In this document: positions 6,623 through 60,772 of the stretch, in pieces
Layout of the letters: each line of letters opens with the position of its first letter
How positions within the stretch are numbered: the stretch's first letter is position 1
Virus record (IMG/VR): IMGVR_UViG_3300005326_000040
Span: 192,001-256,000 of that record
Length of the DNA stretch: 64,000 nt
Strand: one strand, 5' to 3'
Origin: a virus
Taxonomy: Duplodnaviria; Caudoviricetes
The notes under the pieces: model-generated
What the model was told of the DNA's origin: nothing
The model's database searches: none
Seen by the model: the letters and a program-made list of their open reading frames with translations, nothing else
Translations under genes and position numbers: made by a program

Positions 6623-7408
6623 ATGGGCGACATTATTCGTTATCCTAGAACCTTACACATACGTGGCTCACGTAAAACTGGAGATGATTTTGAACTAGAA
6701 GATGTTTCTTTTGAGGAAGCGCTTCAAGGCAAGTATGTTGTTTACGAGGCGAAAATTGACGGTTCAAATTGTGCCGTTAGTTTTGAAGACTCACGAATGA
6801 TTCTTCAGTCTCGTGGTCATGAGCTTCGTGGCGGGCCAAGAGAAAGAGAATTTCAGCAGCTTAGAATTTGGGCAAACAGATATCAGCATGACTTGTTTGA
6901 TATTTTAGGCAATCGTTATATCTTTTATGCAGAGAACATGTTTGCAAAACATACTGTATTTTACGATAACCTTCCTCATTGGATATTTGAATTTGACATT
7001 TTTGATAAGGAAAGAAGACTTTTCCTTTCTACCAAAGCTCGTCGTCGTCTTCTAGAAGGTCTTGAGTATGTAGCTGCTCCTGTTGTATATGAGGGGACAG
7101 CCACAACACTAGAGCATTTGAAATCTTTTATTGGGCGTTCGGCATATAAGACTGACAATTGGAAGGAGAATTTGGGGCTTCAAGCTGAAAGATGTAATTA
7201 TGATGTCGCTCTTGCGATAGCTCAAACCGATCAATCTGATTTGGATGAGGGAATTTATATCAAGGTTGAAACTGAAGAAGAAACGGTTGGGCGATATAAG
7301 TTTGTAAGAGACAGCTTTACGAATAGCATTTTGAATCAAGGGTCTCATTGGCATGATAGGACTTTGATTCCTAATCAGCTGGCAGATAGTCACTGCTTTA
7401 AACTGTAG
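6623..7408 (+). CDS. ATP-dependent RNA ligase family protein (Rnl2/PNKP-ligase-like)
   Basis: YPRTxH N-terminus, adenylylation motif EAKIDGSN, FEFDIFD, DEGIYIK, RYKFVR. Confidence 0.85.
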   Translation: MGDIIRYPRTLHIRGSRKTGDDFELEDVSFEEALQGKYVVYEAKIDGSNCAVSFEDSRMILQSRGHELRGGPREREFQQLRIWANRYQHDLFDILGNRYIFYAENMFAKHTVFYDNLPHWIFEFDIFDKERRLFLSTKARRRLLEGLEYVAAPVVYEGTATTLEHLKSFIGRSAYKTDNWKENLGLQAERCNYDVALAIAQTDQSDLDEGIYIKVETEEETVGRYKFVRDSFTNSILNQGSHWHDRTLIPNQLADSHCFKL

Positions 7409-39135: not shown

Positions 39136-39277
39136 AGGTCGTTGGTCGAGTGGTCGAAGACGCCTCACGGTGAGTGGGGAGTGGCACGGTTTCCGGAAGC
39201 CGAACAGAAACAGTCTGGATGTTCGCGCGAACAAAAAGATTGTTGCCACCTCATTGGTTCAAATCCAGTACGGCCTA
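39136..39277 (+). ncRNA. tRNA-like RNA with a 73-nt variable-arm insertion and an atypical anticodon loop
   Basis: Acceptor AGGTCGT/ACGGCCT, class II D arm, stem CCTCA/TGGGG with loop CGGTGAG, T arm ATTGG-TTCAAAT-CCAGT. Confidence 0.75.
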
Positions 39278-39288
39278 CTATTAAATTA

Positions 39289-39365
39289 GGGACGGTAGCT
39301 CAGTTGGTTAGAGCGTTTGCCTGATAAGCAAAAGGTCGGCAGTCCGATTCTGCCTCGTCCCACCA
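39289..39365 (+). tRNA. tRNA-Ile(GAT)
   Basis: GGGACGG/TCGTCCC, loop CT-GAT-AA, encoded CCA; T-loop TCCGATT is non-canonical. Confidence 0.9.
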
Positions 39366-55519: not shown

Positions 55520-55849
55520 ATGGATGATAACAAGCACGGTGATTTTCTTCTTGAGGCTCAGAATCTTTCTAAAGAAAGAGAAGAAAAGCTAATAGAAATT
55601 AGGGAAGCTATTAAAACAGAAATTAGAAAAGCTGCATCTACTGAAGGCAGACGATATCAGCGTACTCTTTCATCTTTTTGCTCGTATGTTTTGCATCTGG
55701 ATCTAGATAAATCAACAGTGGCAGAATTTCTGCCATATTTAGCTTATCTTTCTAATGCTTTAGTGGTGGAAGGGTTTAAAGTTACTTTTTATCCTGCCGG
55801 AAGTAAATTTGATGATGTAGGAAATATTTGGATAAGTATTGAGTGGTAA
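55520..55849 (+). CDS. hypothetical protein
   Basis: AAGGA RBS before ATG 55520. Confidence 0.6.
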   Translation: MDDNKHGDFLLEAQNLSKEREEKLIEIREAIKTEIRKAASTEGRRYQRTLSSFCSYVLHLDLDKSTVAEFLPYLAYLSNALVVEGFKVTFYPAGSKFDDVGNIWISIEW

Positions 55850-55856
55850 GATTTTT

Positions 55857-55885
55857 TTGACAATCTAGGCATACACTGATATATA
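55857..55885 (+). promoter_or_regulatory. sigma70-type promoter for the Y-like RNA/Ro60 unit
   Basis: TTGACA (55857-62), 17-nt spacer, TG-A-TATATA (-10 at 55880-85). Confidence 0.75.
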
Positions 55886-55912
55886 GACTGGGCAGACTGA
55901 AAACGAATGTAT

Positions 55913-55982
55913 TCGGGTAGTGACGTTTCGGCTACTTCATTGATAACGAAAACCAACCGGAACAATTTTTCTCCCGATTTTT
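55913..55982 (+). ncRNA. Y-like RNA copy 1 (short form)
   Basis: TCGGG/CCCGA terminal stem, TAGTGA internal loop, GTTTCGG/CCGGAAC stem, CTACTTC, U-rich tail. Confidence 0.75.
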
Positions 55983-56004
55983 CTTCGTAAAGATTTAAAC
56001 GATT

Positions 56005-56140
56005 GTGGGCAGTGATCGTATCGGTTACTTCTTGATTAGGAAAAGTGGTTCGAATCCACCTACCAATTGGTGATCATATCAAAGATTGGCGCGGAGCCCT
56101 ACTGGCGAAGGGCATCTCCGATACACCTTTCTCCCCTTTT
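56005..56140 (+). ncRNA. Y-like RNA copy 2 (YrlA-like, with a tRNA-mimic module)
   Basis: GGG-CAGTGA, GTATCGG/CCGATAC stem, TTACTTC, T arm GTGG-TTCGAAT-CCAC, closed stem CCAAT/ATTGG, D-like arm GCCCT-ACTGGCGA-AGGGC, CTCCCC-TTTT. Confidence 0.82.
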
Positions 56141-56154
56141 GTTTTTTAAGGGTT

Positions 56155-56229
56155 TAGGGAAGTGAGATTTTGGTTACTTCAATACAAACCATTGGCAAAA
56201 CCACCAGAATCAATTTTCTCCCTATTTTT
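56155..56229 (+). ncRNA. Y-like RNA copy 3 (short form)
   Basis: TAGGG/CCCTA, AAGTGA, GATTTTGG/CCAGAATC, TTACTTC, U tail. Confidence 0.75.
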
Positions 56230-56247
56230 CTCCTATAAAGGAAGTGA

Positions 56248-57858
56248 GTGAAAGTCATGAGTAAGTTTTTTCATAACAAGGCTGTTTCTCGTACGGATAG
56301 CGAATCTCACGTTAATTTCATGGGCGGAAAGTCATTTGATATTTCCAACCCAATTGTGAAGCTGCGTATTATGGCTTCTTCTTCTTTCTTTGGCGAGCCG
56401 ATGTATTACAATGACGCCAAGGAAAATAGTAAGGCGGCAAACAGTTATATTGACAGCGTAAATCGCAGCTATCTTATCGAAATACTTGGCAATGCTATTC
56501 CTCCTACTGTTGGAAAAACTCCGGCAGAACTTATGGAAGAAGCGATTGATAATGCTTTAAGCTATTCTGTAGAAGGTACTTTGCGAGAGGCTGTTCGCCT
56601 TCGTAATGAAGAAAACATGCGAACAACGCCACAAGTAATTCTTGTGCGTGCTGCTCATCACAAGTCGGCCAAGGGGACCGGTCTTGTAAACCTTTATTCT
56701 AAGGATATTATCAAGCGTGCAGATGAACCGTCTGTTGGGCTTGCATATCATGTATATCGCTATGGTAAGGCTTGTCCTATTCCGAACAGTCTAAAGAAGG
56801 CTTGGAGAAATTCTCTCCAGGGATTCAATGATTATTCTCTTGCGAAGTATCGTATGGAGAATAAGGAAGTTAAGACTGTTGACGTTGTTAATTTGGTCCA
56901 TCCCAAGTCTTTTAACATTGACAAATTAATGAAGGATCAGCTTCGTAATACTGAAAACACTTGGGAAGCTATTATTTCAGCGGAAGGTTCCAATAAGGAA
57001 AGTTGGACAAAGGCTCTGGATGTAATGGGGCACATGGCCCTCTTAAGGAATTTGCGCAACCTAATTGAAAAAGGCGTTGAGCATGATCTATACTTAGGTC
57101 AGCTTGTAGAAGGCGCACCAACAGGAAAGCAGTTCCCGTTCCGATATTATAGCGCTTACAATGTCATCAAGCAGCTTGCAGGCTCCAATGGTAGAGTTCT
57201 TGATGCTCTTGAAGAATGTATGGAGCTTTCTATTGGTAATATGCCGAAGTTTGACGGTCGATTGATGTCTCTTTGTGATAATTCAGGTTCTGCACAAAGC
57301 GCTACAACCTCGTCCGTAGGGACAATGCGGATATCACAGATTGCTAACCTTTCAGCAGTGATTGCGGGCAAGTGTGCAACTGAAGGTCACATTGGGGTTT
57401 TTGGTGATTCTTTACAGACGTTTGAGATTCGCAAGAAGTCTTCAATTTTCGAGCAGACCGAAAAGGCAGATAATATCGGCCATACAATTGGGCAGGGCAC
57501 TGAAAACGGTATTTGGTTGTTTTGGGATAAAGCCATCAAAGAGAAGCAGCACTGGGACCATGTTTTTATCTTCTCGGATATGCAGGCGGGGCACGGTGGA
57601 CTGTATGGCTTGAATCATAGGCATTATCAGGATTATCGCTGGCATGGCACGAACATGATTGATGTGCCGAAGTTGATTAATACGTATCGCAAGCAGGTTA
57701 ATCCTAATGTAATGGTTTATTGCACGCAAGTTGCGGGTTACAGCGATACGATTATGCCTGAGTTTTACGATAAGACTTTTATACTTTCCGGATGGTCGGA
57801 ATCCTTGTTTAGATTCGCCTCAGAAATGTCAAAAATCTTTGTTCCTCAAAAACAATAG
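56248..57858 (+). CDS. Ro60/Rsr-like TROVE-domain RNA-binding protein with vWA domain
   Basis: GEPMYY, MRTTPQV, RADE, KYR, HPK, TWE, GHMALLRNLRNL, QFPFRYYSAY, CDNSGS MIDAS, FSDMQ, GWSE. Confidence 0.93.
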   Translation: MKVMSKFFHNKAVSRTDSESHVNFMGGKSFDISNPIVKLRIMASSSFFGEPMYYNDAKENSKAANSYIDSVNRSYLIEILGNAIPPTVGKTPAELMEEAIDNALSYSVEGTLREAVRLRNEENMRTTPQVILVRAAHHKSAKGTGLVNLYSKDIIKRADEPSVGLAYHVYRYGKACPIPNSLKKAWRNSLQGFNDYSLAKYRMENKEVKTVDVVNLVHPKSFNIDKLMKDQLRNTENTWEAIISAEGSNKESWTKALDVMGHMALLRNLRNLIEKGVEHDLYLGQLVEGAPTGKQFPFRYYSAYNVIKQLAGSNGRVLDALEECMELSIGNMPKFDGRLMSLCDNSGSAQSATTSSVGTMRISQIANLSAVIAGKCATEGHIGVFGDSLQTFEIRKKSSIFEQTEKADNIGHTIGQGTENGIWLFWDKAIKEKQHWDHVFIFSDMQAGHGGLYGLNHRHYQDYRWHGTNMIDVPKLINTYRKQVNPNVMVYCTQVAGYSDTIMPEFYDKTFILSGWSESLFRFASEMSKIFVPQKQ

Positions 57859-57887
57859 ATCAAACTTCCAATAAAAGAAAACACTTG

Positions 57888-57926
57888 AAACCTCCTGCTT
57901 TTTGTTCTTAAAACAGGAGGTTTTCT
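57888..57926 (+). terminator. Rho-independent terminator after Ro60
   Basis: AAACCTCCTG (57888-97) pairs with CAGGAGGTTT (57914-23), followed by T-rich sequence. Confidence 0.75.
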
Positions 57927-58044: not shown

Positions 58045-58169
58045 CTATACTAACAACAACATGAGATGCAAGTCATCTCAGATATGTAGCTAAAATCACC
58101 ATAAAACGCCCCGACTTACCCGGTTAAAATTGACCAAAAATGGGGATTAACAAAGAAGGAGATATTCAA

Positions 58170-59243
58170 ATGGCTCGTAAAACAACAAGTACCACACCCG
58201 CTGTAATCGCTGCTCCAGTAGAATCCACTAAGATCGTTCGTGCTCGCGCTACTCGTTCTCGTTCAGATGTGGCTGATGCCTATTCTGAGATCGTTGACGT
58301 TCAGTCTTCGCAGGAACCTCAGGATCCTAAGATGGTAGAAATCATTCGAATGAATGAAGAGCGTGTCCGGAAGAACACCGCAGGCTTATCTGTAGATAAG
58401 GTGCTTTCGACAGTTTCAGCTACTAAGCTGGAGATGTCTCGTGCTTTGGATTCTGTTATTGAAGTAATGCAGACTAAGCTAGCTGAGCTTCAGGATGTTG
58501 CAGAAGCTGTCAATATTCATCGTTCAGAACTTGAGCGTCTTCATAAGATTGATATTGCAGCAACGTCTCTTGATCAGCTAATTGCAGAAAACACTCGCAG
58601 TCAAGCTGAATTTGAAGCTATGACGGCTGAGAAGAAGGCCGCTTGGGCTCGCGAAGATAGTGAACACGCTCGTTTTATCAAAGAGCGTAACGAAGATTTA
58701 GAGAAGCTGCGTAGACGAGAGCAGGCTGATTACGATTATAACATGTCTTTCAAACGAAAGGCAGCAGAAGACGACCTTCGGAACGCGCTCAATACGATGG
58801 ACAAGACAGCTAAAGAGCGCATCGCAGAACTTGAGAAGGATTTCAACCTTCGGAATGAGAATCTCAAGGCTCGTGAGCAGGAATTCAATGATCTTAAGGC
58901 TCAAGTTGCTGCTTTCCCGGAGGTTTTGAGGAAAGAACTCAGCGCAGCAAACGCTATTGTTACAAATACGCTGAGTAAGGCTCATCAGCAAGAAATGGCT
59001 CTTGTTCGTAAGGACATTGAGACAAATGACCGCATTTTCAAGAACGAAAATGCTGCGCTTACTGGTATGATTGCTAAACAAGCAGAGCAAATTGTTGCTC
59101 TTCAGTCTCAGCTTGAGCGCGAAAAGGAAAAGAGCCAGAGTGTTGTTCTCAAAGCACTGGATGGCGCTTCGGCTCAGATGGCTCTCCGCGAGGTTCAGAA
59201 TTTTGCAAGTTCCTCAAGAGAGACTTCTCCTAAGAAAGGCTAG
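58170..59243 (+). CDS. long coiled-coil protein
   Basis: AAGGAG RBS before ATG 58170; heptad E/K/R/A-rich; WAREDSE...RREQADYDY. Confidence 0.85.
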   Translation: MARKTTSTTPAVIAAPVESTKIVRARATRSRSDVADAYSEIVDVQSSQEPQDPKMVEIIRMNEERVRKNTAGLSVDKVLSTVSATKLEMSRALDSVIEVMQTKLAELQDVAEAVNIHRSELERLHKIDIAATSLDQLIAENTRSQAEFEAMTAEKKAAWAREDSEHARFIKERNEDLEKLRRREQADYDYNMSFKRKAAEDDLRNALNTMDKTAKERIAELEKDFNLRNENLKAREQEFNDLKAQVAAFPEVLRKELSAANAIVTNTLSKAHQQEMALVRKDIETNDRIFKNENAALTGMIAKQAEQIVALQSQLEREKEKSQSVVLKALDGASAQMALREVQNFASSSRETSPKKG

Positions 59244-59315: not shown

Positions 59316-59756
59316 GTGACTTTCCGGCCATTGATCTATCTGGAGGTAAGGAAAATGACGAAAAAAATGAAGAGCGAAGGTGTTGATCATAGGCATCCAG
59401 CTGATTATATTGTGTTTTTTAGACAATCAGACGCCAAAAGATGTAGAAATGAATGTGATTGGGTTCTTGAAAACACAGAAACAACAGAGATTGTTGCCCA
59501 CGGTAGCCTAGAGGAAATGATGGAGCTATCTAAAACATATCCAAACTCTCGTCGGGCGACATGGGCGGAAGATACATTAAGATATAAGAGCGGGATATTT
59601 TATCAAGATTATTTTATGGAGTCAGTTTTTAGTAGTATCGATGATAAGATTAAGTATGCTGATGGTTGGGATGGTAGCATACGTGAAGCTGAAGCAAAAG
59701 ATAACTGGGATTATTTCACCAAACTCAACGCGGAGCCAAAAGACGATGGCGACTGA
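59316..59756 (+). CDS. hypothetical protein
   Basis: GGAGG RBS suggests ATG 59335. Confidence 0.6.
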   Translation: MTFRPLIYLEVRKMTKKMKSEGVDHRHPADYIVFFRQSDAKRCRNECDWVLENTETTEIVAHGSLEEMMELSKTYPNSRRATWAEDTLRYKSGIFYQDYFMESVFSSIDDKIKYADGWDGSIREAEAKDNWDYFTKLNAEPKDDGD

Positions 59757-60273
59757 AACAGAATTCAAGTTCACGGTTAATAAAGACCTTCTTCCGTCTT
59801 TATCAGATGCTTTATTTCGTCCGATAAATATCAAACAATTTTACCTTTCAGTTGGGGATTCATATTCTCCAGAAGTTCGAGTAAGGATTGAAGATGGCGT
59901 AAATTATCATCATGCGGAAATGACCATTAAAAGTGCCGTAGCCGACTATGTTAGGAAAGAAGTTTCTATACCAATAGAACCGGAAAAAGTTGAAGATCTT
60001 TTAGAAATGAAGGTTGGGCATATTATTGAAAAAACACGGTATCTTTTTACAATGACTGGCGCTCATTCTCCTCAGCTTGCCGGTAAGACTTTATGGGAAA
60101 TCGATATATATAAAGGCGCAAACGAAGGATTAATAATAGCTGAGTTTGAGATTCCTAGGAACTTCGAGACAGCGTATAGTTTTACGCCTCCAGCATGGGT
60201 TCTTGAAGATGTAACTAGAATGCCTAAATATAAGAATTCTCATCTAGCTTTGACGCCTTTTGTTCGGTGGTAA
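59746..60273 (+). CDS. CYTH-domain protein (triphosphate tunnel metalloenzyme)
   Basis: ETEFKF (ExExK), VRVR, TIK, EKTRY, WEIDIY, AEFE, YKN. Confidence 0.9.
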   Translation: MATETEFKFTVNKDLLPSLSDALFRPINIKQFYLSVGDSYSPEVRVRIEDGVNYHHAEMTIKSAVADYVRKEVSIPIEPEKVEDLLEMKVGHIIEKTRYLFTMTGAHSPQLAGKTLWEIDIYKGANEGLIIAEFEIPRNFETAYSFTPPAWVLEDVTRMPKYKNSHLALTPFVRW

Positions 60274-60274
60274 A

Positions 60275-60772
60275 ATGGATAAAATCATAAAAAATTTGTA
60301 TTTAGGCAATATCAAAGATGGACAAAACTGTCTTCTTGAAGGCGGATATGCTGTATTGAGTGTTGGAGAAGAGTTTAACGAATTTGGCGGGGAGGATGGC
60401 GTTGTCAGAATTCCATTGAGGAATCCAACCGATTGCGATTGGAAGAATATTCCAATGTGGGATAAGACTGGTGACGAGATTTTGAATTGGTTGGAGGTTG
60501 GGATGAAGTTTATTTCATCTCATATCAAAGAGAAACCAGTAATTGTTCATTGTATGGCAGGCAAGTCTCGTTCAGTGTCGTTTATTTGGGCCTATTTGAT
60601 GAGTTGTGGTTGTGAACCAGTATACGCATATCGAATAATAAAGAAAGCCCGCCCTATTGCTGAACCACATTTTGGGTTTTTGAAGAGCATTTTAGGTTGG
60701 TTTGGATTTGACAAAGTACAAACTGACGACATAATAGAAAACATCAAAGAAATTAATAAGAATGGTGGCTGA
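60275..60772 (+). CDS. dual-specificity protein phosphatase
   Basis: LYLGN; VHCMAGKSRS (HCx5R); KARPIAEPHFGF. Confidence 0.92.
   Translation: MDKIIKNLYLGNIKDGQNCLLEGGYAVLSVGEEFNEFGGEDGVVRIPLRNPTDCDWKNIPMWDKTGDEILNWLEVGMKFISSHIKEKPVIVHCMAGKSRSVSFIWAYLMSCGCEPVYAYRIIKKARPIAEPHFGFLKSILGWFGFDKVQTDDIIENIKEINKNGG

Follow-up and report, generated by a model that had tools for sequence, protein, structure and literature searches.

Introduction

YrlA RNAs are circularly permuted tRNAs with a closed acceptor stem which have been found near Ro60 in 22 phages (PMC4201824; 10.1101/312249). The phages with published YrlA-type RNAs include the jumbo phages CcrColossus and G (PMC4201824; 10.1101/312249; PMC12135203). 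The criteria for YrlA include binding to Ro60 and tRNA-type modifications (pseudouridine 55 and dihydrouridine) introduced by TruB and DusA. A conserved YUAY sequence is located at the start of their variable (V) region (PMC4201824), and both the UA that joins the acceptor stem (AS) to the D stem and a pyrimidine at the last V position are conserved as well (10.1101/312249). In this study we analysed a 64,000-nt stretch of phage DNA (bases 192001-256000 of the IMG/VR virus record IMGVR_UViG_3300005326_000040, referred to here as the window) in which the 400 nt located 5' of a Ro60 gene are noncoding and hold three Y-like units. The middle and longest of these, unit 2 (56007-56137, plus strand), is very likely a YrlA-class Y RNA, as judged from its arm order and from a full-length match to a covariance model which was built without the window.

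Two other systems are also similar to this locus. In the Thermus phage phiLo, Ro60, the Y-like RNAs located upstream of it and the host PNPase form a ternary complex (PMC12135203). In the window phage, as with Yrl1 and Yrl2 of phiLo, at least two Y-like RNAs immediately precede the phage-encoded Ro60. The phiLo RNAs are defined by a CGAA motif and are not described as tRNA-like (PMC12135203), whereas the window has three units without CGAA, one of which carries a T/acceptor/D insert. The second system is Yrn1 of Deinococcus radiodurans, part of the Ro60-Y RNA-PNPase complex RYPER, where the stem binds Ro60 and the other module, which contains a T-arm-like hairpin, tethers an effector; this RNA is the model for the mechanism proposed below for unit 2. 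Unlike unit 2, the T and D elements of Yrn1 are oppositely oriented with no clear D arm, and both strands of its Ro60-binding helix resemble their counterparts in animal Y RNAs (PMC4201824).

The closest likeness is to YrlA itself (RF02553; Salmonella Typhimurium and orthologues; Chen et al. 2014; Wang et al. 2018). Unit 2 lies beside Ro60 on the shared strand, within the ~4 kb of a TROVE/Ro60 gene that is taken as a criterion for YrlA, and 120 nt separate its end from the Ro60 start at 56257. It has a 5' motif in the matching position of the terminal stem, a YUAY sequence (UUAC), the order V, T, closed acceptor-position hairpin and D, a UUCGAAU T loop and a GG in the D loop. As with YrlA, unit 2 is accompanied by shorter YrlB-like units.

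Architecture of unit 2

The elements of unit 2 were assigned from its fold and from comparison with alignment A2, which consists of 33 non-redundant canonical units with the window and its closest relative (L002) excluded. The covariance model built from A2, R1, represents the AGUGA/GGYUACUUC subfamily of Ro60-linked Y RNAs.

56007-56015, plus strand: 5' strand of the terminal stem, GGG(C)AGUGA with C56010 bulged, pairing with 56131-56135; presumed Ro60-binding module.
56018-56024, plus strand: 5' strand of the middle helix, GUAUCGG, 7 bp at the anticodon-stem position, pairing with 56118-56124.
56025-56028, plus strand: UUAC, the conserved YUAY that opens the YrlA variable region; the U-A-C columns are invariant in A2.
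56029-56042, plus strand: V hairpin UUCUU/GAUU/AGGAA, seen in the fold when the terminal and middle stems are enforced.
56045-56059, plus strand: T arm GUGG/UUCGAAU/CCAC with 4 pairs, A56044 and C56060 unpaired; from the sequence, R1 and a motif scan.
56063-56089, plus strand: closed hairpin at the acceptor-stem position, with CCAAUU/GAUUGG (6 pairs), a GG/AA internal loop and UGAU-CAU-AUCA (4 pairs).
56096-56113, plus strand: D-like arm GCCCU/ACUGGCGA/AGGGC, from the fold; its R1 alignment is of low posterior probability.
56118-56124, plus strand: 3' strand of the middle helix, CCGAUAC, from the fold and R1.
56128-56135, plus strand: 3' strand of the terminal stem, UUUCUCCC; the UUCUCC columns are conserved in A2.

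The arms are arranged in the YrlA order of 5' stem, V, T, closed AS, D and 3' stem, as seen in the centroid fold, the constrained fold and the R1 alignment. The initial annotation had assigned a T arm, a closed acceptor-position hairpin and a D arm, all placed on a helix that replaces the anticodon stem, to a permuted tRNA of the YrlA type. This order is the published YrlA architecture and the class was correctly assigned. The helices it listed are all real with coordinates off by at most 2 nt, and the centroid fold consists of exactly these four helices. Both the closed hairpin at 56063-56089 and the D-like arm at 56096-56113 with its GG loop are present in the sequence and in the fold. The canonical loop of the T arm is also as described, but the stem has 4 pairs followed by an A.C mismatch and not 5 pairs. 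Similarly, the helix GUAUCGG/CCGAUAC is found at the anticodon-stem position, with its 5' strand at 56018-56024 and not at the implied 56019-25. The V hairpin and the UUAC element were left out of that description.

All seven positions of the T loop UUCGAAU agree with the consensus. The acceptor-position hairpin (10 pairs with an internal loop) is longer than that of most relatives, and a U56061-G56093 pair may close it further. It is joined to the D-like arm by the linker CGCGGA (56090-56095). A hairpin is also present at the V position in relatives, where the stem sequences differ (by eye in A2); RNAalifold run on A2 did not call it. A U-rich tail (56137-56147) is located after the terminal stem.

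Homology to a Ro60-linked Y RNA subfamily

The RNAalifold consensus of A2 has 29 pairs in five helices, and compensatory double changes were observed in 19 of them. The share of paired cells is 96.6% compared with 73.2% in shuffles, and the covariation score of 0.651 (0.188 in shuffles) was reached in none of 500 shuffles. As a control, pairing partners were slid by 1-3 columns and the covariation then fell to 0.16 or less. In the terminal stem (GGG-N-AGUGA with UUCUCCC) 99.4% of cells are paired and double changes from GC to AU occur; its bulged position 4 is variable. Double changes occur in 6 of the 8 pairs of the middle helix, and covariation is seen in every one of the 7 pairs of the acceptor-position helix. 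In the D stem, which is nearly invariant, the third pair is U-A in all 33 units.

R1 matches unit 2 over its full length (model positions 1-129) with 40.5 bits and an E-value (E) of 4.1e-7 in a search of the window, L002 and L005. With the filters off the score was 40.6 bits, and nothing above 3.1 bits was found on the minus strand. The long unit of L002 scores 59.3 bits. In the R1 alignment the T arm, acceptor-position hairpin and D arm of unit 2 are set at the homologous positions of the family, where G-A-GCCC...GG...GGGC-A of unit 2 is aligned to U-A-GCUC...GG...GAGC-A. Relative to the invariant family D stem, that of unit 2 carries one U-A to C-G double change and one extra U-A pair. When unit 2 is added to the alignment with MAFFT, it retains 28 or more of the 35 columns that are invariant in the family; the 3' half of the D arm is misaligned by MAFFT --add and the covariance-model alignment was used there. 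We regard this homology, seen in the match to a model that was built without the window, as the decisive support for unit 2.

The link from this subfamily to YrlA was found through a canonical relative, L108 (6198-6329), which is matched end to end by Rfam 15 YrlA (RF02553) at 35.9 bits and E 2.2e-6, below the gathering score of 69. In this alignment L108 GGGUAGUGA is placed on YrlA GGCGAAUGC and UUAC on CUAC, and the AGUGA motif takes the place of the CGAA 5' motif of YrlA. Since unit 2 matches R1 and L108, a member of R1, matches RF02553, the homology of unit 2 to YrlA is transitive and not direct.

Folding and chance statistics

In the ensemble of unit 2 folds, pair probabilities are ~0.98 for the acceptor-position and D-like hairpins and ~0.57 for the T arm and the middle helix. 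Individual pairs range from 0.75 to 0.99 in the acceptor-position hairpin, where all except one are at or above 0.96, and from 0.97 to 0.99 in the D-like arm. Enforcing the terminal and middle stems costs 0.9 kcal/mol, and it is in this constrained fold that the V hairpin appears. Thermodynamics by itself does not carry the case for the structure of unit 2, because the z-score of the whole-unit fold energy is -0.95.

This z-score is one of two points in favour of the view that the T-like and D-like hairpins are accidental look-alikes in a noncoding spacer. The second is the ease with which a D-like hairpin arises: a 5-bp stem with a GG loop was found in 13.6% of shuffles of the 28-nt segment, falling to 0.5% if the loop must have the form A..GG..A, and on its own this hairpin is weak evidence. 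The T-arm motif GGTTCGAATCC is a different case. Allowing at most one mismatch, it occurs 5 times in the 64-kb window where 0.78 are expected, and the other four occurrences are located in tRNA clusters at ~39.1-39.3 kb and 44.5-44.6 kb. A chance origin is hardly credible when this confinement is taken together with the full-length R1 match (E 4e-7) obtained from independent relatives, the matching architecture of the nearest relative L002, and a position and strand relative to Ro60 that are those of the family. On the evidence of the alignments it is already contradicted by the R1 matches and by the family covariation.

Divergence from YrlA and from tRNA

A number of results weigh against the placement of unit 2 in the YrlA class. 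The Rfam YrlA and tRNA models gave no match in 55800-56300 even at E ≤10, and no match to YrlA at its gathering score (69 bits) was found in the window. R2, a covariance model restricted to the T/acceptor/D module of the 33 A2 relatives, detects no part of unit 2 other than the T arm (12 bits, E 0.07), whereas canonical phage modules score 40-66 bits; the D-like arm is not aligned by R2, and its portion of the R1 alignment has low posterior probability. The R1 score itself is judged to come mostly from the common stems because the short units, which have no module, score equally well or higher. We also un-permuted the RNA: the closed hairpin was opened and a 7-nt loop was placed on the middle helix. 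ARAGORN at default settings found no tRNA in three such constructs of unit 2, yet it found one in the same construct of L108. The modest fold z-score described above belongs with these results.

The same is true of several sequence features. The GNCGAA(N)G motif of YrlA is absent, as the 5' end of unit 2 is GGGCAGUGAUCG, of the form GGG-N-AGUGA, and CGAA is not found in units 1 and 3 either. YrlA has a UUCRANY T loop on a 5-bp stem, whereas unit 2 has the canonical loop and the two loop-proximal G-C pairs on a stem of 4 pairs. The UA linker equivalent to U8-A9 is replaced by CGCGGA, with R1 aligning G-A to the U-A columns.

Further differences were also observed. The base that precedes the T stem is an A and not a pyrimidine. 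The D arm of YrlA (AGCUCA..GG.AGAGC) has the stem GCUC/GAGC, whereas that of unit 2 is GCCC(U)/(A)GGGC; in the low-posterior alignment of this arm, residues G, C, C and G, G, C and the loop GG are kept, U-A is replaced by C-G and a U-A pair is added, while the A at either end of the D loop is retained. The acceptor-position hairpin is long by YrlA standards, and the D arm is separated from the middle helix by 4 nt, compared with ~10 in the family consensus.

Circularly permuted tRNA genes are known in the red alga Cyanidioschyzon and in some archaea. Like a tRNA or a permuted tRNA, unit 2 has a canonical T loop, a GG in a D-like loop, and arms in the order expected for a tRNA opened at the anticodon loop. 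Unlike a tRNA it lacks an anticodon loop, a free acceptor end and CCA, and no tRNA was called at 56007-56137 by Rfam RF00005 or ARAGORN; it cannot be a decoding tRNA. The term tRNA mimic that was used in the initial annotation holds for the T loop and the D-loop GG, which are kept, but not for the U8-A9 linker, the D- and T-stem sequences and the 5-bp T stem, which are lost. As the linker and the stem sequences are lost, unit 2 is a diverged and perhaps re-specialised YrlA-class copy in which only the T arm is still clearly tRNA-like.

The best match of R2 in the window lies elsewhere, at 39249-39316 (31.7 bits), where it runs from the T arm of a tRNA-shaped gene (~39136-39277) into the D arm of a tRNA-Ile (39289-39365). 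It is a false positive of the YrlA module of the 'dimeric tRNA' kind, of which Chen et al. have warned (PMC4201824), and it illustrates the published idea that YrlA originated from tandem tRNAs.

The losses in unit 2 also bear on the possibility that the module is a relic, where unit 2 would bind Ro60 while its tRNA-like insert decays without an effector and the RNA would only gate the ring like units 1 and 3. Such decay would account for a module that fails every module-level test except that of the T arm and for the loss of features that are reported to be extremely conserved in YrlA. It is also consistent with the very variable region that follows the T arm in L346, L348 and L350 and with the odd third arms seen elsewhere in the family. 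A decaying insert is harder to reconcile with acceptor-position and D-like stems that are free of mismatches at pair probabilities of ~0.98, and with a D stem that differs from the family by a compensatory double change and not by a broken pair. Furthermore, the T loop is intact at 7 of 7 consensus positions and L002 retains the order of the three hairpins with different sequences. We consider a relic rather unlikely.

Relatives and distribution

L002, the closest relative fetched, is a 256-kb contig whose Ro60 is 65% identical to that of the window, with four units with matching end motifs upstream of the gene. Its long unit has the T arm AAACG/UUCAAAU/CGUUU, a 7-bp closed hairpin and a GGG/CUUGGGA/CCC hairpin, and the arm order of the window is thus made from other stem sequences. 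The UA linker and the canonical D stem are also absent from L002. Close relatives have one T-arm unit each together with short units.

The region 3' of the T arm is highly variable in L346, L348 and L350, where composite or rearranged units are found. The T-arm unit is composite at L348:2283-2422 and L350:2121-2264, with an internal second GGCAGUGA...G(U/G)UACUUC as if two units had fused or recombined. These comparisons indicate that the T/acceptor/D module evolves quickly in this phage group.

A separate tRNA-like minihelix was observed between two Y units of L002 (2405-2462). It has the T arm GAUGG/UUCGAGU/CCAUC, a D-loop-like stretch AAUGGUAGA and an interrupted acceptor-like stem ending in ...GCCA, and no anticodon arm; R2 matches its T arm at 19.2 bits.

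Pattern scans gave 25 stretches in IMG/VR with the 5' motif alone. With the 5' motif and the T loop together, at least 120 stretches were found in metagenomes and 115 in genome contigs of species representatives, the genomes in the latter being mainly Opitutaceae and other Verrucomicrobiota, Sorangium/Polyangia and Saprospiraceae with some Ruminococcus metagenome-assembled genomes. In the typical long unit a 5-bp T stem with a UUCRANUC-type loop directly abuts a closed hairpin of 6-7 bp, which is followed by (G/A)U-AGCUCAGUGGUAGAGC, a spacer of ~10 nt and the 3' strand of the middle helix; some other family members have odd third arms. Among 80 IMG/VR phage Ro60 loci, ~35 have R1 matches and many have canonical modules, and in these loci all R1 and R2 matches at E ≤0.001 are on the Ro60 strand.

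The three-unit cluster

The remaining features of the Y RNA cluster are the following.

55857-55885, plus strand: candidate sigma-70-type promoter of the Y RNA/Ro60 cluster, with TTGACA, a 17-nt spacer and TGaTATATA, as read from the sequence.
55915-55977, plus strand: unit 1, a short Y-like RNA that shares the terminal and middle stems but lacks the T/acceptor/D insert; it scores 40.7 bits (E 2.3e-9) in the unfiltered R1 search.
56157-56224, plus strand: unit 3, a short Y-like RNA; R1, 43.5 bits.

Units 1-3 have in common GGG-N-AGUGA, a short helix ending in GG, YUACUUC, a variable insert, a complementary CC strand and UUUCUCCC. The middle helix differs among the three in a compensatory fashion. 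The units and the downstream Ro60 gene are probably transcribed together.

The TTGACA/TATATA site was left out by the promoter scan because the rule of the scan demands T at the last -10 position. A phage-specific promoter motif, GATATATAnACT, is unsupported, as it occurs once in the window with no above-chance excess. A scanned 'terminator' at 56011-56029 was rejected since it is merely an alternative pairing of the AGUGA region with GGUUACU. Just past the candidate promoter is a leader (55891-55914) that starts with GGGCAGACUGA and holds a small palindrome, CGAAUGUAUUCG. This leader resembles the 5' end of a Y unit, as if a further copy had been truncated.

YrlA of M. smegmatis is cut by RNase P and gains CCA (PMC4201824). 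With this precedent, and with units that look co-transcribed from a single candidate promoter, the tRNA-like module could be read as a processing signal that draws RNase P or RNase Z to cut a polycistronic precursor; the GG/AA internal loop located 6 pairs into the acceptor-position hairpin would fit this reading. However, the module is inside unit 2 and not between units, where a cut would split unit 2 and would not free the units. Cleavage by RNase P is stated to be determined by an acceptor stem of 7 bp (PMC4201824), whereas the helix of unit 2 is longer than 7 bp, is closed and is not contiguous with the T stem. ARAGORN also sees no tRNA shape in it. A processing role for the module is therefore highly improbable.

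Genomic setting

The source record is 338 kb in length and is estimated to be 97% complete, and the window therefore comes from a jumbo phage. The stretch is present in a DNA run from a groundwater metagenome. Among sequencing runs, the stretch was found in two DNA metagenome runs and in no RNA run. The contigs from the two DNA runs were the identical source contig and a short identical piece, with no natural variation between them. The gene that follows the Y RNA cluster is the following.

56257-57858, plus strand: Ro60/TROVE gene, 533 aa, with Pfam, PHROG and PDB matches.

Its product matches Pfam TROVE with E 5.9e-11, residues 2-525 match PHROG 850 ('RNA-binding protein') with E 1.9e-40, and PDB 9KOP/9L5Y, the Ro60 of the Thermus phage phiLo, is matched with E 1.2e-17. 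Homologues of this protein number thousands, the nearest being 60-65% identical and several being on contigs of 200-400 kb. A blastn search (distant mode) of 55850-57900 against phage GenBank records gave zero matches.

Downstream of Ro60 is an open reading frame (ORF) of 367 aa (58140-59243) which matches PHROG 29668 (function not assigned), has only hypothetical proteins as atlas matches and has no PDB relative. It adjoins Ro60 in the window, in L002/L004 and in L348, and is located 5' of the Y RNAs in L120 and L346. This ORF may be associated with the Ro60 locus in phages of this group, a tie limited to the nearest relatives. Genes for a CYTH-domain protein, also found in L004, and for a dual-specificity phosphatase-like protein are located at 59641-60772, 1.8-2.4 kb downstream of Ro60; next come an HU-like protein and topoisomerase I.

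Three loci (6734-7303, G000:C1:151730-152269 and G000:C1:296282-296665) hold two Rnl2-type RNA ligase domains (PF09414) and a PolyA_pol/CCA-adding-type nucleotidyltransferase (PF01743) of the phage, and five tRNA genes are located within the window. According to a review of jumbo phages, TROVE proteins and a tRNA-like partner are connected with RNA repair (PMC7824862), and the ligases, nucleotidyltransferase and tRNAs fit such a partnership as part of a jumbo-phage RNA-repair toolkit.

Proposed function

By analogy with the Ro60/Y RNA particles that have been studied, such as that in which Yrn1 tethers PNPase, the terminal bulged stem of unit 2 would bind the ring of the phage Ro60 and the T/acceptor/D module would project from it as the effector-binding part. 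The module would then tether an RNA-binding protein of the host or the phage to Ro60, our best guess for this effector being either an exoribonuclease of the 3'-5' type (PNPase, for instance) or a reader of the tRNA elbow. In addition, the Y RNA may act as a gate for RNAs that enter the ring. We give this tether-or-gate mechanism roughly an even chance for unit 2. For YrlA, Wang et al. predicted the effector to be a tRNA-binding protein that reads the elbow together with the T and D stems (10.1101/312249). A domain search of the phage genome found neither RtcB (PF01139) nor an RNase PH/PNPase domain (PF01138), a result that counts against the mechanism as far as a phage-encoded partner of this kind is concerned, and such a partner would therefore need to come from the host.

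The initial annotation had proposed that the module is displayed on Ro60, where it recruits elbow-binding enzymes or acts as a decoy for them or for anti-tRNA toxins; this proposal repeats an open hypothesis of the YrlA literature. As a decoy, the module would absorb host nucleases or toxins that target tRNAs, or compete for elbow-binding enzymes, and thereby spare the tRNAs of phage and host. The investment of this phage in tRNA supply and RNA repair, with its five window tRNAs, two Rnl2-type domains and CCA-adding-type nucleotidyltransferase, is in line with a decoy, as are the retention of precisely the elbow elements (the T loop and the GG) and the link to RNA repair made in the jumbo-phage review (PMC7824862). 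Unit 2 does not have an anticodon loop, however. The anticodon loop is the target of most known tRNA-cleaving toxins. The anti-toxin form of the idea is unsupported because of this absence. Moreover, no defence or counter-defence gene adjoining the Ro60 locus was found in the Pfam and PHROG annotation of its neighbours, and a decoy would not account for the linkage of the module to a Ro60-binding stem across hundreds of cellular genomes. Taken together, we consider the decoy quite improbable.

Significance

The class has been in print since 2014-2018, as have its permuted-tRNA architecture and phage examples of it, including ones from jumbo phages, and unit 2 is an ordinary though clean and unusually diverged example of it. 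Two aspects are modestly new. The AGUGA/GGYUACUUC subfamily is large and falls below the Rfam YrlA threshold (~36 bits for L108 against a gathering score of 69), with the result that hundreds of Ro60-linked Y RNAs of Verrucomicrobiota, Myxococcota, Bacteroidota and large phages escape standard annotation; this is a gap in annotation and not new biology. In addition, the phage clade of the window has kept the loops of the elbow and lost the conserved core.

Conservation of Ro60/Y RNA particles extends from bacteria to humans, in whom Ro60 is an autoantigen in lupus, and this locus is a compact, self-contained phage example with a candidate promoter, three Y RNAs and Ro60. In the window and the L002 clade the YrlA module might have been reduced to an 'elbow-only' mimic which keeps the T loop and the GG loop and gives up the U8-A14 core, the UA linker and the sequence-conserved D and T stems, although we regard this as unlikely. 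If it were true, the effector would have switched from the proposed reader of specific stem sequences to a host protein that is hijacked or decoyed through the tRNA elbow. The divergence of unit 2 could in any case help to separate what an effector needs from what merely stabilises the fold.

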